From the NCBI GenBank assembly GCA_963847445.1, contig CAWJZV010000012.1, positions 34,680-98,679 of the forward strand: a stretch of 64,000 nt of DNA, in the 5' to 3' direction. Within the stretch, counting starts at the first letter, position 1; each line of letters begins with the position of its first letter. Made by a program: the position numbers and the translations under genes. The notes under the pieces were generated by a model, which ran no database searches, had not been told where the DNA came from, and worked only from the letters and a program-made list of their open reading frames with translations. The DNA is from an uncultured delta proteobacterium. GTDB taxonomy: Bacteria; Desulfobacterota; Binatia; UBA9968. This document shows positions 42,841-62,098 of this stretch, piece by piece.

Positions 42841-42895
42841 TCCCACAAGGAGTTTTCTCATCGTGGATATAGCCAAGCCGACATAAACGCTTTCA

Positions 42896-42923: not shown

Positions 42924-42970
42924 ACAACGGCATAAATCGCAGTAGCAAAACGCAATAAAATCAACGACTT

Positions 42971-44161
42971 TCATGATGTCGCTTTGCTTGTTCTAACGGC
43001 CTTTTGGGCTACGGTAGCCCATTTTTCCAAGATTCCTTTGATGGCAATGCCATCGCGTCTAATCAGGTTTGGAATCCATTTTCGGTAATGCTTAAAAATC
43101 ATTTGTTCCGATGTTCCTGCTGAATTTGCGATCCATCCGATGTCCTCGCCGGAACTCAATGCGATGGTTATAAACGTGTCTTTGGTGTTGTAGCTGTCTC
43201 TTGCTGCGAGGCGACAGCGCTGTAAAGTAGCTAGCCAAATTTTGGAGTGAAGATGTTCGTAGTTTAATGGCCCGCCGTCCCGTTTCCCGATAAAAACGTA
43301 TGGGCTTTTGTTTCGTGTGAGTTTTCTCTGTCGTGCCAGTGCTCGAAAGACGATGGGTCTCTCTTTACAACCGATCACCCTATTGCCGGTTTTTCCACCG
43401 GGAGTCTCGAGCCCGCGGATTATATGTCGTTCCACGGTAATTTCCTGCCGCTCGAAGTCGACAGACTCCCATTTAAGTGCGCATAATTCCCCCGGCCTCA
43501 TTCCTGTCGAGAATGCGACAATATAGTAATTTAGGTAATAGGGATCGACTTTCGATAGAAAAACTTCCACCTCCCTTGGCGTAAGAGGGGCGGATTTGGA
43601 TTTCGCTGTGCGCTTTAGGGCTGGGATACCGGTCAGCGGGTTGTGGGGAATGTGGCCTTGAAGTTTAGCATCGCTGAGTATTTTACGAAGAATACCCATG
43701 ATGTTGTTGATTCGCTTGTTGCTGAGTTTCGTTTTTTTAAGACGTTCACGAAATTCTAAGGCGGATCCCGTGGTAATTTGATCGATGTGAAAATGTCCGA
43801 ATGCTGGAGTGAGGTAGCGACTAACTGCAATGGAGTCGGTTTTCCACGTCGAGGGTTTAATCTCGCGAATGTTCAGTGAACCGTCATCGAGAAATGGCGA
43901 TCGGTCGCTTAGCCATTTCTGCGTGAATTCTGAAAACAGGAGCCGTCGTCGTTTCGCGAATCTTTGAAGTTTACTGCTCTGAGGAAAGTGACGGGCGTAA
44001 TCGAAGGTTCCGGCTCTGATCTCCTCCCGGATCCGTTTTTCTAGGATTCTGAAACGTTCTCGATTTTCGGGAGTGTCGGGAAACGGGCTGTATTCGCGGC
44101 AACGGGTATCCTGATAGCGGAAATCGATGAACAGCTTCCCTTTGTGTGACCGGATGGACAT
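42971..44161 (-). CDS. Tyrosine recombinase/integrase with N-terminal arm-binding (DUF3596-like) domain
   Basis: LFIDFRYQ...FDYARHFPQS; TGMRPGELCALKW; YNTKDTF...AGTSEQMIFKHY. Confidence 0.92.
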   Translation of the reverse strand: MSIRSHKGKLFIDFRYQDTRCREYSPFPDTPENRERFRILEKRIREEIRAGTFDYARHFPQSSKLQRFAKRRRLLFSEFTQKWLSDRSPFLDDGSLNIREIKPSTWKTDSIAVSRYLTPAFGHFHIDQITTGSALEFRERLKKTKLSNKRINNIMGILRKILSDAKLQGHIPHNPLTGIPALKRTAKSKSAPLTPREVEVFLSKVDPYYLNYYIVAFSTGMRPGELCALKWESVDFERQEITVERHIIRGLETPGGKTGNRVIGCKERPIVFRALARQRKLTRNKSPYVFIGKRDGGPLNYEHLHSKIWLATLQRCRLAARDSYNTKDTFITIALSSGEDIGWIANSAGTSEQMIFKHYRKWIPNLIRRDGIAIKGILEKWATVAQKAVRTSKATS

Positions 44162-44421
44162 GTACTTTCTACCAATTCAACGATGGCTTTCCATTTAAAC
44201 AGGGGACGTCCGTTAAGTCCGCGGAAATAGTGCACACCCTCCCTCAGAACCGATCCCATGAGGTTGTAGACGGTTTGGCGGCTGATCGAGAGTCGACTCG
44301 CTAAAATTGCGGCGGTAATGTAAACAGCTTGCTCTCCAGAATCATCAGGAAGAGAACGCGGATTTCCCCTCGAAGATTCGGTGTAATCTAGACTCGGTTG
44401 AAGTGAGTTTGATTTGTTCAA
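44041..44421 (-). CDS. Excisionase-like HTH protein (ends uncertain)
   Basis: YITAAILASRLSISRQTVYNLM...LREGVHYF...PLFKWKAI; directly upstream of the integrase. Confidence 0.7.
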   Translation of the reverse strand: MNKSNSLQPSLDYTESSRGNPRSLPDDSGEQAVYITAAILASRLSISRQTVYNLMGSVLREGVHYFRGLNGRPLFKWKAIVELVESTCPSGHTKGSCSSISAIRIPVAANTARFPTLPKIENVSES

Positions 44422-44589
44422 CGGGTATCGTTCCGTATTAAAATTGAGCTGAATTACCGAAAAGGTACCGGAAGATTAGTTCTGTCGGGTGCCTGTAAAG
44501 ATGACAAAGGCAATTAACTGTGGTTCAATTTAGCGTCCGTCGACGACCGTTTTTTTCCGAATATCATCCCGTTTAATGTTCCTATACGG

Positions 44590-45259
44590 TCACGCAGAAA
44601 CAGCAGTTTTCGAAAGATAGTTAGATACCGCAGCTGCTGTCACTACACCGCCCAGAAATCCTCCGACGTGCGCCCAGAAGGCTACATTTGACGCTCGTGG
44701 TTTCAGCGCAAAGGCAAGCTGCAGAAGAAACCACCCAAGCAAGAAAATCCAGGCGGGAAGCCGGACTGTAAGCCGATGCAAGAAATAGATCAGCGTCGGA
44801 TCAAGCACCAAAGTGATCCGTGCTCTTGGATTGGCGATTAAGAACGCACCGAGAACGCCGCTGATCGCGCCACTGGCACCGATGAGAGGTTTAGTAGATT
44901 CGGATTCCACGATTGCGTGAGCCAAGCACGCCAGTAACGCCTGCGGTCATGTAAAAAGCCAGAAAGTTGCTGGCGCCGAATTCCGATTCCACCCGCCGTC
45001 CGAAAACCAGCAGAAAAAGCATGTTTCCTGACAAATGAATGAGATCTCCGTGCAGAAACATGCACGTGACTAACGTGTGTGATTTGGAAAGATCGCCGAA
45101 TGAAGCCGGGACGAATCCCAAGGTGCGAGCAATCTCGCTTGGAATCACGAAGTTGCTGTTCCAGGTAACGACGAGATGGATGAGAACGTTCGTGCCAATT
45201 ATCGCATACGTTGCCCACGGAGTTCTGATAGGTTTGAGGTTCGTGGCAATCGGAAACAT
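44590..45259 (-). CDS. Rhomboid family intramembrane serine protease (frameshift near 44920)
   Basis: MFLHGDLIHLSGNMLFL, GASGAISG and AFWAHVGGF. Confidence 0.9.
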
Positions 45260-45292
45260 TGTGGTTTCACTGGGAATTCCACATTCGCCGAA

Positions 45293-45943
45293 TCAGAACA
45301 CTTCGCTTTGTTGCGACGTCCCGTTGGCCATAGCTGTGGCTTGCGCGCCAGCCGCCGGAGTATCGGAGGTATGAGGATCGGATGTTCCAGGGGATGCATG
45401 ACCGTTGGCATCACATCTTGCCTCGATCTGTTTTCGCCAGCCGAGGATTGCTAACGCGGCTTCCTCCATCACCCGGGCGATTTTGAAGAGGTCTGGATAT
45501 TCGAGTGCAATACCGATCTTTTGCCCATCCTTGCTCTTGTTGTTCTCCGTGATTCCTAGGAAATAGCGAACCTTCGAACCATTAGGTGGGTCCTTTGGCC
45601 GGTAAAAGCCGATGATCTTGGCATTGCCGTCCCGGCCGCACTTTGCCGGATCGCGGTACCAAGAGGGCAGAGTCCCTTTGGAATCAGCGACCAGGGATTC
45701 TTTCCCTTCCGCCAGCGCCGCAGCCGCGGCTGCGACTTCCAGTGCCCCTTCAAAGTTGAAACTCGCCGTGAGTTTTTTGTCCCAGAGATATTTCTTGGTG
45801 TTCTTATCCGGCATCTTGTTTTCCATCCCTGGGATGACCGACGCCAGGCTTACAAAGACCAGAGCCAGCTCCGGACTCGGACTGATTTGCAGCGCGCTTT
45901 TGCTGCGGTATAAATTCAGCGTTTGCAGAAAGGGTTTGTCCAT
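45293..45943 (-). CDS. Whirly-like (PC4-fold) putative ssDNA-binding protein
   Basis: Collinear motif matches to plant Whirly: LYRSKSAL~IYKGKAAL, KKYLWDKK~RQYDWSKK, WYRDPAK~FFHDPFK, AILGW~YLIGW; low-complexity tail ending SEVF. Confidence 0.65.
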   Translation of the reverse strand: MDKPFLQTLNLYRSKSALQISPSPELALVFVSLASVIPGMENKMPDKNTKKYLWDKKLTASFNFEGALEVAAAAAALAEGKESLVADSKGTLPSWYRDPAKCGRDGNAKIIGFYRPKDPPNGSKVRYFLGITENNKSKDGQKIGIALEYPDLFKIARVMEEAALAILGWRKQIEARCDANGHASPGTSDPHTSDTPAAGAQATAMANGTSQQSEVF

Positions 45944-45970
45944 ATAAACCTCCGATGATGCAGAGCAAAA

Positions 45971-46258
45971 TTAGCTCTGTTTCTGTGTGCTCTCCGGTTT
46001 CTTCTCGACCGGAATGATGTCTTTGATTCTCGCCCCCGGTACCGAGTTCTTGATCTTCACGATGGTCTCAAGGGAGCCGTTCTCCGTGGCTTTTTGCAGC
46101 TGGAGGAGTTCAATCGGACTAAAAGCGAGTTTTCCCTGACCGATGAGCTCCTCATAGACCTCTTTGCTGCCGCAGACGTGAATCTCTCCATAGGGCGTTT
46201 CTAGAATGACCTCCCGGTAACGCCGGATGAAATCCTTCGCTTCTTCCTGACTGATCAT
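45971..46258 (-). CDS. Hypothetical protein
   Basis: Good RBS, co-oriented with the element's gene train, protein-like composition. Confidence 0.65.
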   Translation of the reverse strand: MISQEEAKDFIRRYREVILETPYGEIHVCGSKEVYEELIGQGKLAFSPIELLQLQKATENGSLETIVKIKNSVPGARIKDIIPVEKKPESTQKQS

Positions 46259-46360
46259 AATGTTTCTCCTTCCTGATTTTTGAAAATTGTTCTCAAGCCG
46301 TGATTATTTGGTTCCATTTTCTGGTCTTTCTTGAGCGCTCATTGCCCTAGAATCGACCAG

Positions 46361-46846
46361 ATGAGACTCGTGTTAGTGTTGATTTTGTTACTGATACGAA
46401 CCGACTGCTGGGGGTTATCGCCGGAGGTGTACATGCGAGCCGCGGCGGCGACCGGGATTCCCGTTGAGCTTTTACTGGCGATCAGCCACGTCGAAAGCGG
46501 TTTTCAACCCCACGCGCTCAACGTTTCAGGACGTTCTTTCTTTCCGTCCTCAATCTACGAAGCCGTGGGGCTACTCAAACGATCGGGCGACAATGTCGAT
46601 ATCGGCCTCATGCAGGTCAATTGGAGTTATTGGGGAAACCGCTTCGGTCTTTCCAAGTCCGAGCTTTTAGATCCTCAATTAAACGTCCTGGTCGGCGCGA
46701 AGATTCTCGAACACTGCATTCGCGTCAGTGGCAGCTGGTGGAAAGGGGTGGGTCTTTATCACTCGCCGGAAAACTTTCGCCAGCGCGCTTACATCGAAAA
46801 AGTCTGGCGATCGTATCGGCTGGTGCTGATGAAAATGGGAAAATAA
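46361..46846 (+). CDS. Lytic transglycosylase (SLT; VirB1/IagB-like)
   Basis: Signal peptide; AISHVES catalytic Glu, DIGLMQVN, LLDPQLN and YHS. Confidence 0.88.
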   Translation: MRLVLVLILLLIRTDCWGLSPEVYMRAAAATGIPVELLLAISHVESGFQPHALNVSGRSFFPSSIYEAVGLLKRSGDNVDIGLMQVNWSYWGNRFGLSKSELLDPQLNVLVGAKILEHCIRVSGSWWKGVGLYHSPENFRQRAYIEKVWRSYRLVLMKMGK

Positions 46847-46860
46847 ACGATAATGTCGCT

Positions 46861-49004
46861 TCAGTATACGTAGGCAAACAAGACGAGCTGAGTCGGGCTT
46901 TGGGATTTAGTTCCGTCTCTCTTGGTAATCGATTCCCGCCTGGACTCTGCGCAGGCAACGGCATCCTGTCCCGGTTCAATTCGGCTTTGGTTATTCAGAA
47001 CTTCGCTTTGAATGGGCTCATCGGCTCTTTCAGGGAAAGCCTCGTCATCGATTGCTTCCAGGTTGGTATCCTCTGGAACGATCATGTCGGTTTCCTCTTC
47101 GACGCCCCTGAGTTTTCCAAGCTCGCTTTCGAGAGAGATTTGCTCTTCGGCCCGGTCAATAATGGTCTTTGCCAGGGCTACCAGGCCATCTTCTTCGAAT
47201 TCTTCGACGAAGCTTTCCCTCGTGAGTTCCCCCTCCGTCAAAAGCGCCGCGCGCAGTTTCTTGACGTTCAGGGTTATGGCTTTCTCCTGAATGGTTCCCT
47301 TGTAATAGAGGTGATGGACATTCACGGGTTCCTTCTGACCGATGCGCCATGATCTTCTGGAGGCCTGACGCAAGATATAAACGGAATAGTCCTGCTGGTA
47401 CCAAACAACTTCGGGAAACTGGATCAAATCAAGACCGGTCTGAACGTTTCTCGGATGGGTTATCAGAACATCACCTTTGAATGAGTTGATCCATTCCTCC
47501 CGCTCAGCCGCCTTTACCTTGGCGGCTTTGAGCACTTGGGTTTCAAGTCCCGCCTCGCCGAGAATTTTGGTGAGTCTCTCCGTAATGTCCCGGGTTTCTG
47601 TGTGAACGCAGTAGATTACGGCTCTTTCTGCCGGTCTCTTTTTGCTTCCGCGCAGATCCGTAAAAGTTCTTTCTCTTTGGGATAAAGCGTGTTTTCAGGG
47701 AGCGGAGTGGATTCAGCCAATACGCGCCCGCTGTTTTTGTCTTTAATGATTTCGTGGACCCACGGGCTGTCGGAGTAGCCGAGTAAAGCCTGGAGATAGA
47801 TCCCCAGGAGTCGCTTCGAGCCCTGGTTAAGCGCGTTTCTCAATTCCGTGAGCAGTTCCTCCTGAAATGAGCGATAGGCGTCATTCTGTGCCGGCTCCAT
47901 GTCGATCGCGTGGGCTATTTCACGGTAGGGTGGGAGAGCGATATTCAGGTCAGCGAGCTTTAAGAAAATTGCCCTCGGCAAAAGTTCTGGTATGAGCGCC
48001 GGAGAGATTCCCGGACGTTCATGCCAGCGCACCTCCTGGGCTTTCTTCAGGCTCGCCCTTCCTTCATCCTCATTTGAAACATAGGTGATCTTCTCCAGGA
48101 CACCGTAGAGTTCCATCCACCTCTTGATGTCCTTGAACTGTAAAATCCTTCCGTATGTCCGGAGAGATACGGAACAGCAGATAGAAAAGATTCGAGCTGT
48201 AGCCGCCGAGAAGGGTGCCGGTGAGCGCGAGAATTTGTCGCGCGCCTTTCCCAAATGATCGAGAGCAATGCCTTGTGCTGTGGCCGCGCCTTTATATTCG
48301 TGACACTCGTCAGAAATGAGCAGATCGAAATGTCCGGGGTACTTGTTCTTGAGGTAGGTCGCGAGGGGAAAGCGTCTGGGACCTCTTGGGTCCGCCTCCC
48401 ACAATGGCTCACGGCAATCCCTGCACTTCTGTTTTTTCCGGTTGAGGGATTCCTCCGCCAGCGGCAAGCCGTCCCTGTCTACCAGCGGGATTCTGCATTT
48501 AGGGCATACAAAGGTGCCATCCCTGAGGCGCTTTGCGTGTCCCTTCCAGAAATACCCCAGTTTTGCCTTTTCCCGAGAAAGGATTACGAATAGAGACCGG
48601 CGTTTTTCTTTCAGGACTCTTTCAAGGTCGCCAATTTTCTCCGCCACAACCGCGTGAGCAGAAGGAAGGGTTTGTCTGACCTCTCGCCGCCATTTGCCGA
48701 CGAGATGAGGCGGACAGACGACCAGAGTCTTCTCGAAACCAAGAGCGGCAGCAGCGGCAATCGAGATATAGGTTTTGCCAAGACCCATTTCTCCGACGAG
48801 AATTGCGGAATCGCGTGATCGGAGAGCTTGGACGATCCCGCCGATGGCGTCGACCTGGCTGGCGATGGGCCGTCTGGGGAGTTCCTTTATGAGCTTATAG
48901 ATAGCCTTTCGACCAGTCCCTGGGTGGTAGAGTGGATTGGAGTCCCGGCCAACGCTGGCAACGATGACGGAACGGAACTCTTCGATGAAATCGTGGATGT
49001 TCAT
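46861..49004 (-). CDS. SF2 helicase of ICE/plasmid type (frameshifted)
   Basis: Start MNIHDF; GEMGLGKT, VCPPHLVGKW, two CxxC pairs, DECHEYK, TGLDL and LRQASRRSWRIGQ. Confidence 0.85.
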
Positions 49005-50009
49005 ACGATCTGCAGGTATTCGCCCGTGTTCAAATCGAAGGCGTTTATCTGGGTGATGATTCGTTCGCGCTCGGTGATCTTGATTCCTTTTTCGGTTTCC
49101 TCTTCGAATGCGGTCAATGGCCTTCTTCGACGTCCCTTTGATAAGCAGCCTTTTGCCGTTGGCTTCCAGTATCTGGTTATTGATGAGTCCCGCGGCAATC
49201 AGCATTGCCAGATGGGCTTTGCGAGGCGGCATGAGTGGTTGAATAGGTGGTCTTATCTGTTCATCTTCCTCGACCAGACCGAGCGCCGGCTCTTTCCAGA
49301 GGGAACTTGCCTTAAGCTCTTCAAAAAGCTCGTCAGGACCGAACTCAGACGATCGGATAAAGAAGTCTTTCGTGACGGCCGGGATACTGAAGGAGAATTC
49401 CTTTCGATACATTTCGGGGAGATCCACAGCCTGAATTTGGGTCAAGCTGGCAAGAACTTCCCCGTCTATCTCGGCGCGCGCCTTTTTGAGCCCGGCGATG
49501 ACGATTTGCCCGAACGCCTGGAACTCGTCGGCAGGAAATCTTCTGACTTTCAAGTCTTCAAAGTAGGCGGAAAGAACTCGGGCAATTCTTGGTGTGATTC
49601 GTTTTTGCGGCACCACGAAAAGGAGAAGGCCTCCTGGAATGAGATAAGGGAGTGTATGCTTGAGGAAGGAAAGCTCTGTCCGGCCGTCTGCCGCATCGAA
49701 GTCATAAGGAGGATTCAAGTACAAAATTGAAAAGGCTCCGGGGCGTGCTCTTACGCTGAAAAGATCGCTAGCAACGACTTTACTTAAGAGGTTCTTCGCT
49801 ACCTGCGCTCTTTCGGTATTGATTTCTACGCCATAGGCGTCGCATCCAGCAGCGACTGCTATTCCGGCCGCCGGCTCTCCAGTGCCGCAGCAAGGATCGA
49901 GAAGTCGCCGCAGACCAGGCTTTTTCTCGCCGATCCAGGTCTTGATGATGTCGACGACGTTGGGCGGCGTTGGATAGAAACCCGCCTTGGCTTGTGCCTC
50001 AAGTCTCAT
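49001..50009 (-). CDS. Class I SAM-dependent DNA methyltransferase (DUF6094-like; frameshift near 49110)
   Basis: GFYPTP, LDPCCGTG, YGVE, LNPPY and PLMPPRKAHLA; stop overlaps the helicase ATG (ATGA). Confidence 0.82.
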
Positions 50010-50044
50010 GAATACTCAATTCTCGAATGGGAAGAATGAAGCCT

Positions 50045-50668
50045 TTAGATACGCGAGGATGTCTTGGAAAACGGTAGGAGTGAGACGTTGTCGAAAACTT
50101 TTCTCAGCTTTCCCTTTTTGAGTGCCGTGGAAATATCTTCGGCCAAGCTTATATCGTCCAGTGAAATCTTGATCCCATGGATTCCATGGGCCGTCAGCGC
50201 TTCTACTTCCTTTCTTTGGACGGCTCGTTTGTACAGCCACGCCTTCCAGCCGGAATGGACCGGAACTGCACTGTGCTTTATGAGGGCAGTGAAATAGAGA
50301 TCCGAAACCGTGGGTTCCGGTCTTGCCGTCAAAGCATAGTAAGTCTGCGACTGGCCAAGGTCGTTTTTCATGAATACTGCTGTATGGACGATTCCCGAGG
50401 GTAAAGCCTTAACATTCGTTCCGTATTTTGTTTTGGGAAGCAGGCAAATCTCGTGAATTCCGACATTTAACCAGTGGTTGGTAAGAAGCCTGGCTCTGAT
50501 GGCCTTCACCGCGTCTTTATAGCCGGCAATAGAGAGAAAGATGACCCATTGTCCGTCCAGTGCATAGGCGTCGGCGAACGCGTGAAATCCTTCGGCCTCA
50601 ATGGGTATTAGAGCGGAAGGACAGTCCTTCCCGGTAGAGTCGCTGTTTGACTGCGGGTGCACATTCAT
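50045..50668 (-). CDS. Hypothetical protein upstream of the MTase-helicase pair
   Basis: Intact co-oriented ORF containing FLSIAGYKDAVKAIRARL. Confidence 0.65.
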   Translation of the reverse strand: MNVHPQSNSDSTGKDCPSALIPIEAEGFHAFADAYALDGQWVIFLSIAGYKDAVKAIRARLLTNHWLNVGIHEICLLPKTKYGTNVKALPSGIVHTAVFMKNDLGQSQTYYALTARPEPTVSDLYFTALIKHSAVPVHSGWKAWLYKRAVQRKEVEALTAHGIHGIKISLDDISLAEDISTALKKGKLRKVFDNVSLLPFSKTSSRI

Positions 50669-50720
50669 TCTGCTTTATGCCGAGCCGCTCGTTTCGGTGA
50701 TTTTCGGAGATGCTGTGGCG

Positions 50721-51026
50721 CTAATATTCGTGGGGAAGAAGGAGAGTTGTAACAGATCTGTCTGCCTCAGTGATGATCCACACTTTCACATCGTGCAGGG
50801 TTCGATAGGCGCTGAGGATTCGGAAACCATTTATCACGGAAAATTCGTTTTCCCGTATGTCTTCTGCACAAAGCTCACCCCAATCTCCCGATTGATGTCT
50901 TTGGATAAACTCGAAGGGGTTTTGATTCGCTTCCTCAAGCGCTTGCAGAGCACCCGGCGTGGCGACAATACGTCCCAGGGGAAATTTTGGCAGCAATCGA
51001 TTCATATCGGTCATTTGTTTTTCCAT
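50721..51026 (-). CDS. Conserved plasmid/ICE small protein of unknown function
   Basis: FPLGRIVATPGAL...RHQSGDWG...WIITEADRSVTTLLLPHEY family signature. Confidence 0.8.
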   Translation of the reverse strand: MEKQMTDMNRLLPKFPLGRIVATPGALQALEEANQNPFEFIQRHQSGDWGELCAEDIRENEFSVINGFRILSAYRTLHDVKVWIITEADRSVTTLLLPHEY

Positions 51027-51035
51027 TTTGGTTGC

Positions 51036-51514
51036 TTAAAGGTGCCCCGAATCCTTGAGTGAAACGTAACTCTTCTTGCCGATGATGATGTGATCGAGAA
51101 ATCGTATGGGCAGGAGATCGGCTATCTGTTTCAAAGACTTCGTTACCGAGATGTCCTCGGCGCTCGGTTTGGGATCACCGGCGGGATGGTTATGCAAGGA
51201 CGATCAACAGCGGCGGCGTTGGTCAACAGAGCGCCTTGCAGAATCGCTCGCGGTTCAAAAAGCGAAGCTGTCAAAGTTCCCCGCGATACTTCTTCAATGG
51301 AGAGCACATGATGTTTGTTGTCTAAATAAGTCGCGATGACGACTTCTCTTGGTTCATCTTCGAGAGCGGAGAAATAATCCCAAACCTCTTTGCTCGAGGT
51401 AAAAGGAATGGCGGGTAGATACGCAGCGGCATTTTCCGCCGCGACCAGTTTCACCCTTACGGTCGGTCCCTGGTAGGTTTTGCGAAAGAGATCCAGATTA
51501 AAAGAGTTCGACAT
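51036..51514 (-). CDS. radC: JAB-domain RadC-like protein (frameshifted)
   Basis: EPREV...YLDNK...VSRGTL...PRAI, then HNHPAGDPKPSAED...LDHIIIG in the shifted frame. Confidence 0.88.
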
Positions 51515-52543
51515 CGTCGGGCTGGTCGTTGCCAGGTAAAGATTTTGGCGATGAGTTACCAACATCGTTCCCGTTTAAATGTTCATGGAGATGGAAAACC
51601 GGAGTCATTTCCGCCACTTCTCTCGGTACAACCCATACCGGCTTTCTACCGTCGAACTGAAGTTTTGCCTCGGCCAGCAGTGCTTTTTGAAGCGACAGGT
51701 GGAGCAGGGAAAACCTAACTTCGGTTCGAGAATCTTCCCGGTTTCCTCACAAGCAGTGCAGGGCTTTTTGATTTGCTTCTTTTCTGTGAGATAGAAGCCG
51801 TTGCCGTCGCACTTTTCACAGACGAGCTTGGGACCGTACTCCCGATCGGGGAGATTTGTCGGAGTTGCGTGGATGACCTTGCGAAACCGCGCCACCACTT
51901 CTTCGTGAAGCTTAGGATCGAACGGATGGGTAACTTCGGCTCTCTGCCATTCGTCGTCTTCGATGGGCGATTCAGGAGTGTATTGTAGCCAACCTCCTGA
52001 CGGAGTAAGGATTCGCGTTTCGATCTTTTCGATGTTCTTTGAACAAAACAGTTCCAGGAGATGAGAAGTCTCCTTGCGGTAACAGACCCAGAGAGCGTTA
52101 TTGAGACCTCCGCCGACGACGTAGGAGTTGAGCTGGCAGCGGTAAGCGTAGTCAATCTTTCCCTGCAGGGCGTTACGAAAACCGTAATTGGACATGCTTT
52201 TCAGCTCGGCGACGGTCCGGCCATAGGATTCCAGAGTAGGAACGCCATCGGCGTGGCCAAAGATCTTTATGCCATCAACCTCGATGTAGAACTCTTTTTC
52301 CTCCGATCCCCATGACTTCGCGCAATGTGTTCTGAATTCCTCCTTCAGCCATTTGTCGACTCGTTTGCCTTCTTCGAGGATCATGAGCACCCGCGCCGGC
52401 ATGGGCTCTGATTTGAAGGTCGAGGGAAAGCGCTGGTAGGCGAGAGCGCGGGCGCATCTCCCGCTGTTGGAAAGACGGAAAGGGTTGCCTGGGTGTTTTT
52501 TACCAATCTCGATATAAAAATCGATCACTCTCTCGATGAGCAT
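51498..52543 (-). CDS. Solo Cas4-like PD-(D/E)XK nuclease with inserted DnaJ-type zinc finger (3' frameshift)
   Basis: SNSGRCAR, GHADG, AELKSM, QLNSY and CSTCRFKKHC; insertion CEKCDGNG...CTACEETG. Confidence 0.75.
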
Positions 52544-52576
52544 TTGTTTTTACAGAAAAACGGGAATCAGGCGATT

Positions 52577-53925
52577 TCAGATCTCAGAAAGGATCTGACC
52601 GCCCTCTCTGGCGTTTGGCGATGCCGATAGGGAGAAAACTTTATCTGAGAACTGCTTCACTGTTTCTGTGGTCTCCGAGCCGATGAGAACGCTGTAGCAT
52701 TTTGCTCCAGACCGACGCTTCGCCTGAATGAAGTCCGCTTTTCTATCTTCCTCGATGTTGCAAATCCCATCGGTGATGAAAAAGAGATCCGCCCGCGGTT
52801 GTTCTTTGAATTTGTCTTGAGCCCACCGGAGCGGCGGTCCGAAATCGGTCCCCATGTGGAAGGACGCCGTTGCCAAGTCCTCCAGCCGGTTCACATCGAT
52901 CTCAAAGATCTCATTTTCGCTTGCGCCAAAGATGATCCCGTGAGCTTTTCGTTTTTCCTTTTTGGCTTGCAGCATTGTGGCGATCGCCAAAGCTTTGGCC
53001 CAGATCTCTTTTGCTCCCGCCATGCTTCCCGAGCCGTCGACGGCGATCAATATCGGCCCCTGTGTTTCTTCGACTGGATTCTTGTAACTGTAGGCCAGGA
53101 GATCTTCGTCCAGAAGCCTTTTCAGAAACAAATCTTCGCCTTGCTCTCCAATGGCGAGGGTTGCCAGCTCGTCCGGCAGGACTCTCTCGATGCCATCGAT
53201 GCCGACCGTTTCGACGCCTCTTCTTACCGGAGCCGATGGGTTATCTTGGATCTCTTTATCGATAGCGCTTGAAGCCTCATCCGGCCGAGCATCTTGACGA
53301 TTTCCTTGATTTTCGAGTTTTTTCCAAGAAGATCGGCGAGGCGAAACTGCTCGGTTAACGGGATTCGCTGGATTCCTCCTTCTTGTCTTCCGAAGGTCTC
53401 GACCGCTTGCTTTGCCTCCTGGGCCTCCTCCAGTCCTTTTTTGAGCGATTTACGAATTGCCCAGCGAAGCGTGTCAGGGTCGACGCCCATAGGACCCTTG
53501 TTTGGTTTGCCGTTCTCGGGCTCTTTCTTATCCTCCTCTTTTTTCTGCTTGATAAGTTCTACGATCTGGTCCGAGAATGCTCTTGTTGCCGCTGCCGAAG
53601 CAAAAAAGTCGAGCCTGGATACGCTGTGCAGTTCTTCGTATTCTTTGAGTCCGAGCGCGGTTTCCATGATCTCGCGGTTTTCTTCGGTCTCCCGCGGCGG
53701 ATTTTGTTTGAGCCTGGCCTTGTTTTGAAAAAATGCCGAGAAAACATCCGAGAGAAGCGGTAAATAGTTGGATGTAATCTCACTCCCTTGATCCGCTGCT
53801 TCCCTGAGCCCTTCATAGCTCTCCACTGCGGACATGAACTTGTGCGCCTGAAAGCGTGTGCCGTCGATGCACATCCGCTCGAAGAGCGTTTTTGCGTCAG
53901 CCAGTGTGTTTGATTCGGTCTGCAT
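52577..53925 (-). CDS. VWA domain protein (ViaA-like; frameshifted)
   Basis: GPILIAVDGSGSMAG MIDAS motif, GTDFGPPL and ADLFFITDG; adjacent to the AAA ATPase. Confidence 0.85.
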
Positions 53926-53928
53926 AGT

Positions 53929-55056
53929 TTAGATTCTCAATTTCAGGAAATTCCGCATGATGTTGGCCTGGATAGAGCGAATACTCTCCACGGCGTCTTT
54001 CTCTCTTTTCGATCTGGCTAGTTTTTCGGCATCCGAAATGATCGCGGCGATTTCAGTTGCCGCCTGAGACGCTCGTTGGAACATTTCGCTGCCATTCATG
54101 CGGTCTTGTTCCTGCTTTAACTTTTCCAGCTCCTCTCTGGCGCTGTCCAAATATTCGAGCACTTTGGCAAGGCCGGGATCGGTGATGTTAAGAATGGCCT
54201 GGCGCACGGTTATTCTTTCTTCCGGTTGATGCCAAAGGATCGACGACAGCGATTCGAGGTCGTGAAGCTCGGTCACCGGTCGTCCATCCAGAGCCGCTGA
54301 CGCCCTGAGAACCCTGACGGATTCGAACCATCGTCGATTTGAGCTTTTTACCCCTTGGTCGTGGATTTTCTCTCTGAGCTCGGTCAGAGCGTCCTTTACA
54401 TCATTGGAAACCTTGACCCCTTCCGCCGATGTCCAGAGTTGTTCGATTTCATTCATTGGCACCTTTGGCGGGGGGATCTCATTTCGATCCAAGACCGCAC
54501 GGAAGTTTTCCGCCATTTCGATGTCTTTGACTTCTTCTCTGATCAGAAGCCGGTCGTAGATGGCTCGCCGCGTCGAGTCTTCCGGGATTTCATTGGAGCA
54601 GGCAACGGCAAAAACCAGCGGCATCTTTACGGTCTGTCCGCCGTTGGTGAACTTTCCGTCTCGTAGAGCCCAGAGAAGCATGTTGACGACGCTCGCGTTG
54701 GCCTTCCAGATCTCGTCCAAGTATGCCACTTGGGCTTCCGGCAGCTTACCCTCGGTGATGAGAACGTCTTTGTCTTCTTTCAGCGCCTGGATGCTCTGGA
54801 TGCCGAAGATGTCTTTGTGTTTAGCTTCGTCGGTGAAAAGAAATCTGAAAGCTTTGAGCTCCAGGGCATCGCAGAGCACCTCGGCCAAATGACTCTTCGC
54901 GGTTCCGGGCGGACCGAGGAAAAAAACGTGGGTTTTTGCTGTCAAGCCCAAGAGGATTGCCCGGATGGCGTGGTCCAGTTCGACGAAGTTGGAATGAAGA
55001 TAGTTCTTGAGTTCTTCGAATCGCTGCATCTTTTGCTTCTCCTTTGGGTTTTTCAC
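53929..55056 (-). CDS. MoxR-type AAA+ ATPase (RavA-like)
   Basis: GPPGTAKS, LDEIWKA, CSNEIPE, AIYDRLLIR and SNRRW. Confidence 0.9.
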   Translation of the reverse strand: MKNPKEKQKMQRFEELKNYLHSNFVELDHAIRAILLGLTAKTHVFFLGPPGTAKSHLAEVLCDALELKAFRFLFTDEAKHKDIFGIQSIQALKEDKDVLITEGKLPEAQVAYLDEIWKANASVVNMLLWALRDGKFTNGGQTVKMPLVFAVACSNEIPEDSTRRAIYDRLLIREEVKDIEMAENFRAVLDRNEIPPPKVPMNEIEQLWTSAEGVKVSNDVKDALTELREKIHDQGVKSSNRRWFESVRVLRASAALDGRPVTELHDLESLSSILWHQPEERITVRQAILNITDPGLAKVLEYLDSAREELEKLKQEQDRMNGSEMFQRASQAATEIAAIISDAEKLARSKREKDAVESIRSIQANIMRNFLKLRI

Positions 55057-55325
55057 CAGCCGGTAGAGTTGGAATCGAGCCGAAAGTCTTTTACCGACTG
55101 CTCGTAATCTGCTTGGGTGATGTAATTGCTGGCCACGCCGACCTGGCCTTTCATCATGCGAATCAGGTTGATCACCCGGCCGGAAAGGCCCATGTCGTCG
55201 AAAACAAATCGGTCCACGAGGGTTTCCAGTTGGCCGCGAATATCCGCCAGTTCCTCATCGGTCGCATGGAACTCGATGGTAAGCGTGCGTGATTTTCTAT
55301 TTTGCGATTTCATGGTCATCGGCAA
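55053..55325 (-). CDS. Hypothetical protein
   Basis: Co-oriented; stop overlaps the ATPase start. Confidence 0.55.
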   Translation of the reverse strand: MPMTMKSQNRKSRTLTIEFHATDEELADIRGQLETLVDRFVFDDMGLSGRVINLIRMMKGQVGVASNYITQADYEQSVKDFRLDSNSTGW

Positions 55326-55346
55326 AACCTGTCGTCATGCGGATTG

Positions 55347-56252
55347 TCAGATCAGGTCCAGTTGACCGCTGGAGCCAGCGACGTAAACGGCGGGGGATAC
55401 CGATTCTTCTGGGTGGTGATTTACTGCGGGTTTTCCGAGCAGTCTTTCGGCGATTCTCGACTTGGCGTGTTGGATATTCCGTTTCACCTCGTCAAGCTCC
55501 ATGCCGAGACCGATCTCGTAGGCAGCGGCTTGCTCAAGAAGATCCCTGGCGTCTTTGAGCCGAGTATTTAGGGTTTTGGTGTGGGTGTCATCGGAGATTT
55601 CCGCCGTGAGCCGTATCAGAGTTTCAACCGATGTCCGGAAATGATCGTGGGCTCGTTCGACGACCTTTTGGACTTCATCACCAACCACCGGTGAAACCCG
55701 AATCGTGCTTTCCTGGCCCAGGCTGTCGATCACGGTCATTAGCTCAAGAACTTCGGGAATGTATTTCTCAAGGGCAAAATAGATTTCTCCGTTCTTGGGC
55801 CGAACCGGGATTCCCATGCAGGCGGTCAGATACTTCGTCACAACGATCGAAAGGTCCCTGGTGATGGCGGTCTCCATGTGAAACCGGAAGCCGTTTTCGA
55901 GCGAGCTCCTGATTTCCGGATAGGTCGTGTTCACTTCTATCCGACCCCGTTCCACGTACGCTTTGCCGACACCAGCGTCGATGTCGCCGTTGCTCAGCGC
56001 CTCGCGGCTCAAAATGATCTGCACCGGTTTGTCGTTGACCTTTTCGAACGACGATTCTTCAAAGGTGTAGCGCTTTTGATCGAGATTGAGGCTCAAAGCT
56101 CTTCTTAACGCGGTCTCCGGCCTGATCGGCTTTAAAGGAATTGTGATCGGCAGGGTTTCGAGTTTACGCGCGAGAATCTCTCTCTTGCAGCTAAAGAGGT
56201 AGAGATCTTTCATGACGTAACGGCCTGGGGATTGTTGTTGAAGCTGTGCCAT
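55347..56252 (-). CDS. Hypothetical protein resembling DUF6744/DUF3150-type partners of AAA-VWA pairs
   Basis: PETALRRA, IPVRPKNGEIYF and a helical C-terminus (AAAYEIGLG); strong RBS. Confidence 0.6.
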   Translation of the reverse strand: MAQLQQQSPGRYVMKDLYLFSCKREILARKLETLPITIPLKPIRPETALRRALSLNLDQKRYTFEESSFEKVNDKPVQIILSREALSNGDIDAGVGKAYVERGRIEVNTTYPEIRSSLENGFRFHMETAITRDLSIVVTKYLTACMGIPVRPKNGEIYFALEKYIPEVLELMTVIDSLGQESTIRVSPVVGDEVQKVVERAHDHFRTSVETLIRLTAEISDDTHTKTLNTRLKDARDLLEQAAAYEIGLGMELDEVKRNIQHAKSRIAERLLGKPAVNHHPEESVSPAVYVAGSSGQLDLI

Positions 56253-56367
56253 CGGCAGGTCTCCTTTGCACCTGGTTTTTCAGGTGAGGATTGCCTTATT
56301 CCTTTTTTGCAGCGCTTAATCGGTGCGACTACCGAAGAAGTGTGAAAGAAGAGCGAAAAATCGAATC

Positions 56368-56706
56368 CTAGTGGAGCGGTCTGGGAGAAAGCTTGTAGAT
56401 TCCGATGTGATCCGTCCCGTGGGTTGTCATCATGATTAAAGACTCACCGGGTTCCAGTTCTTTTAGAAACTGCTGGTAATCGGCTGCACATTGCTGATCG
56501 ATCGATAAGACCTCGGGAACGTCCGATGACCTGATCGACATGATGGTCAGAAGATGCCCCCTGCGGTTTACATGAACCGCGACCCTGGCGCCGCATTTTT
56601 CCATTCCTTGAAATATCTGCTTCGAGATCAGATCGCAGATGAGTTCGATGATTTCCATGTTCAACTGACACTCATGGCAGTCGACATGTTCTAAGCATGC
56701 CATCAT
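56368..56706 (-). CDS. Hypothetical protein with N-terminal CxxHxxCxxC
   Basis: Intact ORF overlapping the upstream stop. Confidence 0.55.
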   Translation of the reverse strand: MMACLEHVDCHECQLNMEIIELICDLISKQIFQGMEKCGARVAVHVNRRGHLLTIMSIRSSDVPEVLSIDQQCAADYQQFLKELEPGESLIMMTTHGTDHIGIYKLSPRPLH

Positions 56707-56939
56707 GGCTTGTTTCGTTTCCTCGCTACCCAGTCGAGATAAGCCTTAGGATCACCGTGAAACTTGGCCGGAGCATTTCCGGGGACAGCGAGATGGCCGA
56801 TAAGTTCGATCAAAGATCGTGAGACTCCCGGACGACGGGAGCCGGTGACTCGTACGCTTAGGTGAGTCGAAGTGAGTTCAATGAAATAGGGCGTGCCCGG
56901 AATGCTGCGTCGAAACGGTTTTGGTTTGAGATCGACCAT
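56703..56939 (-). CDS. Hypothetical protein
   Basis: Intact ORF tightly packed in the gene train. Confidence 0.55.
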   Translation of the reverse strand: MVDLKPKPFRRSIPGTPYFIELTSTHLSVRVTGSRRPGVSRSLIELIGHLAVPGNAPAKFHGDPKAYLDWVARKRNKP

Positions 56940-56940
56940 G

Positions 56941-57175
56941 TTATTTTTTCACCAAAGTTAGATGCCGCGTATCCCTTCGGTTCATAACGGGTAAGTCCAA
57001 GATTCTCTGTCCAGCGAGCCGATACGCATTGCAGCAGGGCTTACCGCCAAGCCGCATGCGTCTCGGGATGGCCGCATTTCTGAACAATGCCGCCCACAAC
57101 CCAGACTTGGAGATCGTAGTCGAAACCGCTCCACACGCGGCCATGCCGGTTCAAGTTTCTACTCATGCGCGTCAT
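56941..57175 (-). CDS. Small Cys/His-rich hypothetical protein (frameshifted)
   Basis: Joined translation MTRMSRNLNRHGRVWSGFDYDLQVWVVGGIVQKCGHPETMRLGGKPCCNAYRLAGQRILDL...KK. Confidence 0.55.
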
Positions 57176-57259
57176 TGGCTTTTCGTCCCTTCCAGAATGA
57201 ACTCATGAAAGTTTTGTGGGAGTTGAAGGAAGAGGATTCCATTTCAACTCCGAGAACGG

Positions 57260-57968
57260 CTAGCGCGATAAGCTGCCGCTTATCTGTCCGTTCTGGCCGA
57301 CATAGATCTGGGCGCCGCCAAGCCCGATCGATCCCCCGTTTGGTCCGCCGGAGAGGCGGAACGGTCCGGATGTGTCAGCTGCGCGTCGCGGGTGCATTCG
57401 CCGTCGCCTTCTGAAGCGGAGCCGATGAATCAGGTGCGGCCTGTTCATCTGGAGTCTCCACCAGGCTCGATCTGGCGATCAGGCCATCTGGATTTCCCTT
57501 ACGGGAGACCACCAGGGCCTTATCGTCCCGGCTGATGCCCGCCACGCGGACCAGGGTTCCTTGCGGGATAAGAATTCTCGCACCATCTCTTCTGGTGGTG
57601 AGAACCGTATCCCGCGAAAGCCGGTAGAGAGCAGGCTTCGGGAAAAACGAGATCTCGTCTCTTTCCCTCGACACTGTCTCCATCTTTGCAGGAGCATTTC
57701 GTCTCATCGTTGCCTGCGGTGCCGCTGTTTTGTTGGCGACCGATGGCACTTTCTGAGACGCTGGATTTGCTGCGGTCGGCCCTTTGGACTCCACCGTGGC
57801 GCCTTCCAGTGTGATCACCGCGGGCGCGGCAACGGGTTCTTTTCGCTCCGTCGCTTGCACCATGCGGTTGCGTTTGGCCAATACGACAAAACCGAGTGTC
57901 GTATTGATGGCCAGTGACGCGATCAGCAGCACCTGCAAAATTGGCTTCTCCTTTCTTGTTCTTCTCAT
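57260..57968 (-). CDS. Membrane-anchored protein with Ala/Pro-rich stalk and SH3-like domain (probable 3' frameshift)
   Basis: RBS GAGGAGG; basic N-terminus plus TM; IPQGTLVRVAG...LVVSRKGNPDGLI. Confidence 0.6.
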
Positions 57969-58191
57969 GATGCCCTCCTCCCGGAGGCCCCGTTTGGTTT
58001 TCCTCCTTGGGGGAGGTGATGGGGGCCTCCGCCGCTGGAGTCTCTTAACTCCACTGGTGGAAGCCCCCACCGGTGACATCACTTCCTCTTCCCTCAACGA
58101 TTTCAGTCTAAGAGATTTGAGCGGCCATGGGCCGTCGGAATTGGACATATTTGAGGCGGGAAATGGTGCGATTTCCGAGGAATCGCAGATA

Positions 58192-59611
58192 CTACGCGTG
58201 TTTGAGGATTTGCGTGAGTAGGATTTGCTTCTGCTCGATGGTCGTCGAAGATATCTTTGATCGATTCCAGCTTCTCGGATGGGAACAGGTCCGGCTTGGC
58301 GATCAGCTCGCTTACGAGAAACTTTTCCAATTGTCGTTTACGCTCGCCAATTCTTTCCTTTTTCTCCCGGCGCGCTTGGACTTTCTCATCCATTGCCCAA
58401 GCTGACAGCTGCAAAGCTGCGGCTGCCTGTTGAGCAAAGCGACTGGCTTCTAATGGATCGGGGATCGCTGTCGCCAGGCGAATGACTTCTTCAGTCAGAC
58501 TGTCGATGCCCTCGGTTTCTTTTCGCCGGGTGATGATCTCTATCGCCGCATCCTGGACCGGCTTTGCTTTCTCGATCAGCGCTTCGAGTTCAGCGACATT
58601 TCCTTCTCGGACGTACTGGTCGGGATCGTAACCTTCAGGCAGCGACACGGCCTTCACGGTCGAGCCGGGCTGCGAGATTCTCAACGCTTTTAGCAATGCG
58701 GCTCTTCCGCCGGCATCGCCGTCGAAGATCAAGATGATCTCACGAGCGAGAGTAGCGAGCATTGAGCTTTGCTCAGCGGTGATCTCAGTCCCGAGTAAAC
58801 CGACGGTGTTTTTGAAACCGGCCTGATGCAGGGTCAAGACATCGAAGTAACCTTCGACCACGAGAACGGTATCGTTGGAAATCTGTAATTGTTTCAGTCC
58901 GAAGAGAATCTTTCTTTTGTTGAAAATCGGCGAGTCGGAAGAGTTCAGATACTTCGCCTGCGCTGAAGTTATCGATGGCCCTTCCACCGAATCCGACCGT
59001 CACGCCCTTTGGTCTCTAAAGGGGGAAAATGATTCTGCCCATGAATGGGCAGATCACTCCTTGGTCTTTCTCTTTGAGAACACCGGCGCCGATGGGAATT
59101 TCCTTTTTCGCGATGCCGGCTTTCTTGAGCGCGACGATCAAGTCTTTGATCGAGCCGGCGTAACCAAGCCCGAACTCTTCTTGAATGTCCGGTTTGATGC
59201 CGCGCTCGGTCAAATAATTGACCGGCGATCGGTAAGTGCCCGACCGAAGTTGATTTGAGAACTCCTCCTGGGCTTTGGTGAGGCAAAGGAAAAGAGGCTC
59301 CCGGTTGCTATCCGTTCCGGTGCAAAAGAAACCTTGGCTCTTTGAGCGAGCATGCGCACGGCTTCAGGAAACGGGAGATTCTTGTGTTTTCGCAGGAACG
59401 TAATCGCGTTGCCGCTGGTGCCGCAGCCAAAGCAGCGGAAGATCTTCTTCTCCGGGCTCACACTCAGTGAAGGGGACTTGTCTTCGTGAAACGGACAGAG
59501 ACCCTGAAAGCTCTGGCCAAGTTTCTTAAGCGCGATGAACGAACCGATGAGTTCGACGATGTCGGTCGCTTCAAGGACTCGGTCAATAGTTGCCTGTGGG
59601 ATGGGGGGCAT
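58192..59611 (-). CDS. dnaG: DnaG-type DNA primase (multiple frameshifts)
   Basis: CPFHEDKSPS...CFGC CHC2 finger; RIIFP, GFGGR, KYLNSSDSPIFNK; Toprim VEGYFDV, DGDAGG and DPD. Confidence 0.92.
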
Positions 59612-59677
59612 AAGCAGGATTCGTTTTAGCCGATACATTGAAGGTTGTTCCGTTGGGAATGAGGCCGAGATTGATCT

Positions 59678-61461
59678 TCAGTGAGTCTCTTTTACCGACT
59701 CGCATTCTTGGAGCGCCATTTCGCGAATAAACCGGGAGGGTTCGGTTGGCTCTCCGTACAGGGTCTTTGGCGATAAGGCGATGAACAGATCTTTCGCTCG
59801 GGTCAGAGCGACATAGGCGAGCCGGCGTTCTTCCGGGATGTTGGCTTGGTCTCTAATCTCAAGGGGTAGAATCCCTTCGACACAGCCAAGAAGAATGACC
59901 GCCCGATGCTCCAACCCTTTTGCTCGGTGGATGGTGGACAGGTGAACGCGCTTCTCCCTGGGAATATCGTTCAAATGCCGGAGCCATTCGATCTGTTCGA
60001 CAATCTCACCAAGATTGCGGTAGCGCGCCATCAGTCTAAGAAGTCCCTTTGCTGTCCCGGTTGTCAGTGATGAACCCGCGTTTCTCGATGATCGCCGATG
60101 CGATCCTTGGCACTTCCAATGGCTGTCTGTCATGGCAGCGTTGGACTTCTCGCAAATCGTCGAACAGTAGATTCATGCCTCGGTCGATTTCGGTATCGTG
60201 GATCGCGCGCTCCAACGCAGTGTCGAAAGGACTCTGCCTGAGTTCCTTCGCCAACGAGCCGATCTCGTCGGCATGGCGCCGCCCGAGATAGTGCCTGAGC
60301 AGGATTTCCTCCCAAGCGTCGTCCGGCCTCCAGGCTTGCAGGCAAAGCGGCAGCAGCAGGCCTTCTTTCAGTAGCACGCTGGTATTCTTCAGGACCGAGA
60401 AAGGGATTTCATGGTCGATGAGTTCGGACTCTAGCTCCGCACGGTAGTGATTGACCCGGTAGAGAAGCAGAATCTCCCTCGGCTCGAATCGCTCGTGAAT
60501 CAGATCTTCAACGATTCTCGCCGCCAGCTGCGCTTCCTCGATTTCATTTCCCACGGCCACCCATATCGGAGTTACCCCTGCATGTCGGGTCGGTATCGAG
60601 TAATTGTCGCTGCCGTTTCGTTGGATGAGCCGATTGGCTGCATCGAGAATCTTTCCCGAAGATCGGTGGTTTCTGACCAGATAAAACTTCCGGGTATCCG
60701 GGTAGATGTCGGCGAGCCGTTCGATCTGATCGTAGCAGGCACCCTTGAAGGAGAAGATCGCCTGGTTGTGATCCAAAAAGAAGGTGACGTTAGGACTGTC
60801 CCCCGCAAGCCGGCGTATCAGTTCAGTCTGAACCGGATCGAGGTCCTGTGCTTCGTCGACCAGGATATGGCTTGGCTGTGGATAACAGTTCTCGGCCGAT
60901 TGGAGCGTGTCCCAGTGCCAACAGAAGCAGATCGTCATAATCGAGTCGTTGGCCTTTTAGTCTTTCGTATTCGCAGACAAGCTTCCCTCGTTCTCCTTCG
61001 TGATCCAACAGCCCGAGTTTGGTCTGGCTGATTATTTGAGCGATCTCCCGCACGTCGCTTTCAATACCGACCGCAGCGTGCGGCTAGTCGAACAATGGCT
61101 GCATGATCGTAGTGCGAAAGAATGGTCAAACGTCGTTGTCTGGAAGTTTTCAGGATCCCGTAGCAAAGGGAGTGGATGGTCGAGATGGTGACAGAATTGG
61201 AACGTTCCTGCCTGGCGATTCTGCCCACGCATCTCCTCGGCCGCCTTGCGAGTATGCGTGACACACAAGATTCGGGCATCGGGATAACAGCTACGAATGT
61301 GCAGGGCTTTGGCGGCCAGCGTCTGAGTCTTGCCCGAGCCCGGCCCCGCGATCACGATCGATGGACCGTCGATCGCCCGTGATCGCCGCTTCCTGCTCGG
61401 CGTTGATGGCTCCGGGTAAACCCGCGCTTTTCGGCGACCGGTCGAGCTTCACTGTCGTCAT
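59678..61461 (-). CDS. UvrD/PcrA-type SF1 helicase (multiple frameshifts)
   Basis: AGPGSGKT, TIHS, VDEAQD, QAIFSFKGA, NHRS, TIHRAKGLE, EERRLAYVALTRA and PSRF. Confidence 0.92.
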
Positions 61462-61621
61462 TGGCATTGGCATCTGCGGGCGTTAGTCCTTCCTGATTTT
61501 CCAAATTGGGCAGGGCATCCGCGATTATCTGGTTCACCAGGCGCGTCATCGGAATCTTTTTGACTCTCCTCAAGCGGTAGAGTTGGGGAATCAGCGCTTC
61601 GTCAATCTTTGGACTGTACAT
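61352..61621 (-). CDS. Small ribbon-helix-helix-like DNA-binding protein
   Basis: MYSPKIDEALIPQLYRLRRVKKIPMTRLVNQIIADAL has a beta-helix-helix pattern. Confidence 0.55.
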   Translation of the reverse strand: MYSPKIDEALIPQLYRLRRVKKIPMTRLVNQIIADALPNLENQEGLTPADANANDDSEARPVAEKRGFTRSHQRRAGSGDHGRSTVHRS

Positions 61622-61678
61622 TGGCGGGAAATCTCCTGTCGGTGCGAGATCAACAAGATCTGACGTTCTCAATCGCAG

Positions 61679-62069: not shown

Positions 62070-62098
62070 GAGACCCTCCTATTTGTGAATTATCGCTT

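Follow-up and report, generated by a model that had tools for sequence, protein, structure and literature searches.

What is a protein of the plant Whirly type doing in a bacterium, close to an integrase gene? The question is raised by a gene in the stretch of DNA that we analysed, 64,000 nucleotides from an uncultured delta proteobacterium of the Binatia (assembly GCA_963847445.1, contig CAWJZV010000012.1, positions 34,680 to 98,679; hereafter the window, with coordinates counted from its first letter). The gene lies at 45293..45943 on the minus strand and encodes a protein of 216 residues, called P0001 below. An initial annotation, made from the letters of the window, had read it as a Whirly-like single-stranded DNA (ssDNA)-binding protein carried by an integrative element. 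Sequence comparison shows P0001 to be homologous to the Whirly family, though divergent. Its gene is under strong purifying selection and has a fixed operon place beside the integrase, and the protein is built of a core, a linker and a tip. As to its function, we lean on balance, from its sequence and gene context, towards an ssDNA-binding hub protein of mobile elements that resembles SSB without having its OB fold.

The open reading frame has 216 codons plus stop, is intact on the minus strand and ends in SEVF, as initially annotated. Inspection of the sequence shows a ribosome-binding site, GGAGG (45949..45953, minus strand), 5 nt ahead of the ATG. P0001 has more than 160 close homologues. 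Public data contain 87 protein clusters at 57-96% identity, none of them with a recorded Pfam domain, and the gene occupies 86 syntenic loci. In seven genomic copies compared over the first 176 codons, dN/dS was between 0.04 and 0.10 in all 21 pairs. Several genes near P0001 are frameshifted in the window copy, which could make one think of a chance open reading frame or a dead gene. With the frame intact, the Shine-Dalgarno sequence present and the conservation pattern just described, this reading is already refuted, and we consider it next to impossible. A weak hint that the gene is transcribed comes from metatranscriptome contigs, 95-99% identical, found in four runs of four studies; they cover parts of the gene only, and DNA carry-over is possible.

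How firmly can P0001 be placed in the Whirly family? Two results count against the placement. P0001 alone did not match the Pfam Whirly model (PF08536, gathering cut-off 23 bits) even at E<=10, and a comparison by hhalign of its close-family profile (A1) with three plant Whirlies (P0130-P0132) reached only 73% (E 3e-5). Other searches at this level were equally unproductive: the sole Pfam match of P0001 was DUF5560 at E 0.0057, under the cut-off, PHROGs and NCBIfam gave no match, the best PDB match was a PPK2 protein at E 0.85, and the A1 profile alone found designed repeat proteins only in the PDB. The kinship becomes visible through relatives of intermediate distance. A phmmer search of P0001 against 1.84 billion representatives returned 10 small metagenomic relatives (E 2.3e-11 to 8e-4), 8 of which exceed the Pfam Whirly cut-off at 34-45 bits; P0098 (E 2.2e-9) and P0100 (E 4.7e-8) are both above it. 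The alignment of A1 with these ten relatives (A2) gave 99.9% in hhalign (E 5.8e-31, 158 columns), and the mixed A1+A2 profile led by P0001 (A3) reached the same three plant Whirlies at 98.4% (E 4.7e-15). In the PDB, the A2 profile retrieved the six distinct p24/WHY1/WHY2/WHY3 sequences (E 2e-11 to 1e-9), and A3 retrieved the same six over nearly the full length (E 9e-10 to 5e-7). Weak collinear matches to the Pfam Whirly model were also seen in 7 of 30 close relatives, all sub-threshold (E 0.02-0.24, 11.7-15 bits), and the nearest ESM Atlas cluster of the homologue P0014 is annotated as 'Whirly ... domain-containing' (score 0.92). The HMMER comparison with Pfam that the initial annotation had proposed is thus negative for P0001 itself and positive by way of its relatives and profiles, and the phmmer, hhalign and PDB profile matches together bear out the family assignment.

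The Whirly-like core comprises residues 1-174 (45422..45943, minus strand) and aligns to plant Whirly and p24 over approximately residues 8-175, that is, over nearly the whole domain. Along it, YRSKSALQISP corresponds to plant YKGKA[SA]L..P, LVFVSL to VMMLQF, KKYLWDKKLT to RKYDWEKKQF, WYRDPAK to FFHDPSMK, YFLGITEN to YFLSLSVV, and AILGW to HILGW. Within these stretches YRSKSAL, KYLW, YRDP and ILGW align with YKGKA[AS]L, KYDW, FHDP and ILGW/IIGW, so that the motifs Y-x-x-K-x-A-L, Y-x-W, [HR]-D-P and L-G-W are common to both groups. The six motif pairs that the initial annotation had put forward are all in register when aligned with plant sequences by hhalign and MAFFT; HMMER alignments to p24 preserve five of the six, but place the second differently. 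Positions conserved superfamily-wide are Y12, K15, A17, Y52, W54, K57, D98, P99, K109, L167 and W169. The KGKAAL motif is reported to mediate ssDNA binding in Whirly (PMC9070903). P0001 has R and S in place of its first K and its G, and R in place of the H of HDP. Single-stranded nucleic acid binding would be expected of P0001, as of the plant proteins. It differs from these in being prokaryotic, borne by a mobile element and devoid of a transit peptide, and in falling, when taken alone, under the Pfam cut-off. The plant proteins have nothing that corresponds to its additional loop, IPGMENKMP, and their PKF...G insert is in turn missing from P0001. Finally, its low-complexity tail ends in E-x-F, whereas three plant sequences end in EWDG or EWDK.

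This tail, residues 175-216 (45296..45421, minus strand), was recognized by its composition and carries the tip S-E-V-F (45296-45307). Hydrophobic residues account for 10% of it versus 32% of the core; it is rich in A, S, T, G and P, and the core is basic, with a net charge of +6. Tails were compared in 71 homologues containing the LGW[RK] motif and in 85 loci with a complete C-terminus. Over the 71 homologues the tail measures 12-57 residues and is scarcely conserved in sequence; 51 of them end in F and 45 in E-x-F. The loci gave a similar picture, with a terminal F in 59 of 85 and [DE]-x-F in 49. The succession of a predicted binding core, a variable low-complexity linker and a conserved C-terminal aromatic tip recalls the build of the OB-fold SSB (PF00436, DDDIPF tip), in which the C-terminal tip is the docking site for partner enzymes. 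The initial annotation had likened the tail to that of SSB. The variable linker and the conserved E-x-F agree with this likeness, but the canonical DDIPF motif is not found in the window family.

It is found in sister Whirly clades, which bear the same D-D-[IV]-P-F ending as SSB. Two profiles of related clades, A6 and A7, each align to A1 at 98.9% in hhalign. Among the A2 members, 3 of 10 (P0101, P0102 and P0111) end in D-[VI]-P-F, and P0113 and P0114 end in DIPF. Thirteen further non-plant Whirlies comprise 11 that end in acidic residues followed by [IVT]PF, one that ends in DGDF and one without a tail, a count biased by the retrieval of this set with tip-bearing queries. The A1 profile, which is blind to the tip, found two more members in complete or near-complete genomes, P0133, ending in SEDDIPF, and P0134, ending in GERFPF; the latter is 29% identical to P0001 over 193 residues (BLASTP, E 3e-23). 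The gene of P0133 is flanked by genes for a DnaG primase and a UvsW-like helicase (3-nt gap); ParB-like and DnaB genes are close by, and the closest OB-fold SSB is 64 kb distant. That of P0134 neighbours SbcCD-like, ParB-like, ORF6N and DnaB genes, and no PF00436 match was found on its 42.8-kb contig. The P0133 locus (L096, G039:C1:949000-966000) belongs to a complete 2.5-Mb genome and has IS21 istA/istB just upstream and the ParB-like, helix-turn-helix and DnaB genes downstream; it is probably prophage-like or an integrated replicon without an OB-fold SSB of its own.

Other prokaryotic Whirlies occur in different surroundings. Two unclassified metagenome-assembled genomes (MAGs) contain tail-less Whirly genes encoding 146-148 residues, both above the Pfam cut-off (L012 5316-5762 and L013 1661-2101). 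Their neighbours are housekeeping genes, for folate, FtsH, MutS or NfeD/SPFH, and these proteins may be chromosomal DNA-binding proteins. Of 401 genomes that sample the phylum of the window organism, 2 had a match to the Pfam Whirly model. A 188-aa Whirly-like protein scoring 26.9 bits is encoded in another genome of this phylum (L009 1111-1677), near a P-loop ATPase fragment (L009 3-299, GAPGIGKT); the window element likewise has a MoxR/vWA pair. Searches among phages and plasmids returned nothing: neither tblastn of P0001, P0111, P0102, P0133 and P0134 against 50,697 phage records, nor tblastn of P0001 and P0134 against 72,556 plasmids, nor IMG/VR scans with A1, P0111, P0102, A6 and A7. Genome-contig profile scans with A6 and A7 also found nothing, though a genome search made afterwards found a member of the A6 clade in G039. 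The initial annotation had further suggested that mobile elements are a reservoir of the Whirly family. This is sustained by the window family, which resides on an element, but not by the tail-less Whirlies found among housekeeping genes in two MAGs.

Which genes accompany the Whirly gene in its own family? The collection of homologues with their neighbourhoods, advised by the initial annotation, was carried out on the 86 loci, with counts restricted by the flank length available, and its recurrent partners were a 95-aa gene, a rhomboid gene and often an exonuclease gene. The 95-aa gene (45971..46258 in the window, minus strand, 27 nt upstream of the Whirly gene and on the same strand) is directly upstream in all 70 loci with at least 350 nt of upstream sequence. 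Its product had no match in Pfam, NCBIfam, PHROG or PDB. The rhomboid protease gene (44590..45259, minus strand, 33 nt downstream; a frameshift divides it in the window, and each half matches Pfam Rhomboid) is downstream in 40 of the 42 loci with at least 1500 nt on that side. An intramembrane protease fixed in the integrase-proximal module is odd cargo for a recombination or replication module. One of the two integrases used as queries was present in 8 of the 17 loci whose flank reached at least 3200 nt. Where at least 300 nt were available downstream, 50 of 65 loci have, between the Whirly gene and the rhomboid, a PolB-exonuclease-like 3'-5' exonuclease gene (for example L004 5397-6242 and L037 10589-11347), recognized by PF10108 at E 2e-7 to 7e-6 and by weak PolB matches in the PDB. 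The other 15 of the 65 loci, the window and a clade nearly identical to it, are without this gene, which was lost there or never present. The whole is a small operon adjoining the integrase: the 95-aa gene, Whirly, sometimes the 3'-5' exonuclease, and rhomboid. A Whirly-exonuclease fusion, or a loss of the tip driven by gene overlap, was considered and dropped; the exonuclease match begins past the Whirly stop in L037, L045, L087 and L090.

The operon is at one end of a larger unit. A tyrosine integrase (42971..44161, minus strand; Arm-DNA-bind_2 and Phage_integrase) marks the element end, and the GC content drops from 0.61 to 0.51 at approximately 42 kb. A block of about 19 kb (approximately 44400..63310) is common to other element copies. 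Its left limit was deduced from the rhomboid, which is shared, and from the window integrase, which matches nothing in L001-L006, a different integrase being present at the same place in other copies; on the right, blastn homology to the copy L011 ends at 63310, and the contig ends at 64000. The block is present in six loci of five MAGs, with Whirly proteins 55-98% identical, and in 80 metagenome loci. The records of the element-bearing MAGs are labelled delta-proteobacterium, Binatia and beta-proteobacterium, and the A1 profile matched 3 of the 401 genomes of the phylum, that of the window among them. One MAG (G403) carries two copies on different contigs (L001 and L002), with Whirlies 98% and 93% identical to P0001, and most copies run off contig ends, as expected for repeated mobile sequence. 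These observations support an integrative mobile element, in line with the initial annotation: an integrase-bounded, low-GC block shared among different MAGs. We do not call it conjugative, because VirB4 (PF03135) was found in none of the five carrier genomes. In the search for att sites, no direct repeat of at least 9 nt was seen to join the integrase end (42780-43010) to 63150-64000, and a general repeat search was likewise unconvincing. Between a Usp gene and the integrase, a string at 42895-42929 (minus strand) looks like the 3' end of a tRNA, with T-arm, acceptor stem and CCA, and could have been left as an att remnant when the element inserted into a tRNA gene; neither ARAGORN nor Rfam gave it support, and the window has no second copy.

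Upstream of the 95-aa gene, the element encodes an SLT lytic transglycosylase on the plus strand (46331..46846; Pfam SLT, syntenic in other loci). All the following genes are on the minus strand. A helicase C-terminal piece (46861-47535) is followed by a DUF6094 methyltransferase/SNF2-type helicase (47616-50009). The same split into two open reading frames, methyltransferase plus helicase N-part and a separate C-piece, is seen in other loci, and therefore may be a genuine two-gene arrangement and not a frameshift. A RadC-like JAB gene (51143-51565; Pfam RadC) precedes a Cas4-domain nuclease with a zinc-ribbon region (51605-52543; phrog_1990 Cas4-domain exonuclease, E 1e-19). This nuclease had been proposed as a possible partner of the Whirly protein; the proposal is not supported, as the two genes are about 6 kb apart and show no specific link. 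A vWA protein, a 233-aa protein of no assigned family and a MoxR AAA+ ATPase follow (52577..55056). The replication module (58103..62470; Pfam assignments, with intact equivalents in L011) consists of a DnaG-type primase and a UvrD-type helicase, both in pieces, a 106-aa open reading frame, an OB-fold SSB (61650-62069), the canonical SSB that the initial annotation had noted on the element, and an RNase H (62099-62470).

The element SSB ends in GDDIPF in the intact copy L011, and the host SSB ends in DDDIPF. When compared with other copies, the window copy has extra single bases: one in the rhomboid gene (versus L001), five in the UvrD-type helicase (59678-61460) and one in the SSB tail. As a result these genes are divided or change frame, and the window SSB loses GDDIPF; the Whirly gene is intact. 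The extra bases represent either assembly error or decay. On a 153-kb metagenome contig (L021 10001-12815), the Whirly gene, the rhomboid and an integrase are present, but, apart from a fragment of the 95-aa gene, the 10 kb upstream are devoid of element genes; this copy looks truncated or rearranged.

How might an SSB-like hub protein operate in such an element? The carrier is an integrase-bearing element, about 20 kb long, that occurs in uncultured bacteria of soil and sediment and is predicted to supply a primase, a UvrD-type helicase, an RNase H, nucleases and an OB-fold SSB of its own. The core of P0001 may form a Whirly-type tetramer that coats the ssDNA arising from replication, recombination or excision of the element, and the C-terminal tip could, in the fashion of the SSB tip, serve as a docking peptide by which one or more partner enzymes are brought to this ssDNA. 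Since E-x-F differs from DDIPF, the partner set is probably distinct, and P0001 would work beside the OB-fold SSB, not replace it.

Unlike the OB-fold SSB, P0001 has no match to PF00436 in the Pfam scan. A number of observations speak against the proposal. The tip of its family, E-[VAI]-F, is without proline or acidic run and is not the SSB consensus, and the common short tails are lysine-rich, basic instead of acidic (for example ...AKEKAEVF). Of the 85 loci, 26 have no terminal F, 19 of them among the 50 that carry the exonuclease gene, and the tip is therefore dispensable in some lineages. The element already possesses a true SSB, so that the need for a second ssDNA binder is something we infer. 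Neither of the constant neighbours, 95-aa protein or rhomboid, hints at DNA metabolism, and the window copy of the element, frameshifted in several genes, may be decaying. Moreover, some Whirly-fold proteins act in transcription, and one of them, ChmC, binds RNA (10.1101/2023.09.22.559000).

These points lead to other functions that the protein may have. The earliest descriptions of plant Whirly present it as the transcription factor PBF-2 and as an organiser of nucleoids, and P0001 might by analogy be a nucleoid-associated or regulatory protein, one that binds DNA with low specificity, or at element ends or promoters, and controls excision, copy number or expression. In loci that extend far enough, its gene is indeed in the terminal module adjoining the integrase, and the tail-less Whirlies amid housekeeping genes are what one would expect of a chromosomal DNA-binding protein; plant WHIRLY1 is reported to compact nucleoids (PMC9070903). 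However, a conserved docking-type tip after a variable linker is no known feature of nucleoid proteins, the DDIPF-tipped relatives are found in primase/helicase modules, and no helix-turn-helix or other sequence-specific domain was found in P0001 in the Pfam scan. We regard this function as unlikely. The same tips and replication-gene neighbours of the sister clades favour DNA over RNA as the ligand, and binding to element or host transcripts, as by ChmC or the trypanosome proteins MRP1/MRP2, appears to us quite improbable. It is true that the P0001 core is basic, and that ChmC, from the Chimalliviridae jumbo phages and thus also from a bacterial mobile genetic entity, is a homotetramer of the Whirly fold with a disordered C-terminal region and prefers RNA (10.1101/2023.09.22.559000). 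Yet ChmC forms condensates and is reported to have no detectable sequence similarity to known proteins, and the accessible part of that report describes no SSB-type tip (10.1101/2023.09.22.559000). P0001 is linked by sequence to the plant-type ssDNA binders of PF08536, not to ChmC or MRP, neither of which was among the PDB matches (E<=10; E<=1 for the A3 profile).

A role in counter-defence, in which the SSB-like tail acts as a decoy, or the coating of ssDNA blocks host nucleases or ssDNA-sensing defence at entry, was also weighed. sPC4/Whirly-fold domains are described as presumed nucleic acid sensors in the Shedu and Menshen defence systems, and the element has a methyltransferase-helicase, RadC and SSB, genes of a kind that is common in establishment or anti-restriction regions. 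But Pfam, PHROG and NCBIfam scans revealed no known anti-defence family (no PADLOC scan was made), the Whirly gene is at the integrase end and not beside the SSB gene, and no transfer genes were found, VirB4 being absent from the five carrier genomes searched; we consider such a role very unlikely. The Shedu and Menshen domains, together with YdbC/DUF2128, SP_0782 and Borrelia Bpur, are described as belonging to the same fold superfamily as Whirly and as binding single-stranded nucleic acids. They differ from P0001 in being dimerising half-size domains of the PC4-like or PUR-like type, or N-terminal domains of nucleases, and none matched P0001; PC4, PUR-alpha and DUF2128-type models gave no match at E<=10. 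P0001 would have, judging by the alignment, the full two-repeat Whirly arrangement, each repeat of the Whirly fold being of the type beta-beta-beta-beta-alpha.

Can the SSB-like reading be extended from P0001 to its prokaryotic relatives as a whole? We do so tentatively, as we find the wider proposal more doubtful than not. According to it, prokaryotic Whirlies would constitute an unrecognised non-OB class of SSB in mobile elements and prophage-like replication modules, which has either converged on or captured the linker and tip of SSB. The clades ending in DDIPF would join the host SSB network and could replace SSB, and the window family, with its E-x-F tip, would have a separate partner, for which the neighbouring 3'-5' exonuclease and the 95-aa protein are possible candidates. 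The Whirlies of plant organelles would descend from such proteins. In a tree of 25 Whirly sequences the window family is one clade (100/99), and the plants join P0129 with a support of 86/97 only. The backbone is unresolved, with 7 of 22 inner branches open, and no conclusion on the origin of the plant Whirlies is therefore drawn.

Whirly proteins have been called plant-specific or unique to plants (PMC11712025, PMC11359715, PMC9070903), and the accessible part of a review of PC4-like proteins lists no bacterial member of PF08536 (PMC7549692). A full-text search of the literature, confined to main texts, found no paper on a bacterial Whirly member, and the phrase 'bacterial Whirly' was absent. 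A prokaryotic Whirly clade that resides on a mobile element and is built like SSB suggests that a second kind of SSB has been overlooked in bacteria. The tips of the prokaryotic Whirlies suggest a practical use as well; recombineering and replication partners are described as being matched to SSB tails (PMC13490951). If our reading is correct, the textbook design of SSB, with its binding core, floppy linker and docking tip, would have been rebuilt on a second, unrelated fold. The window family would then offer a simple bacterial system for the biochemistry of Whirly proteins, and a concrete lead on the source of those found in plant organelles.

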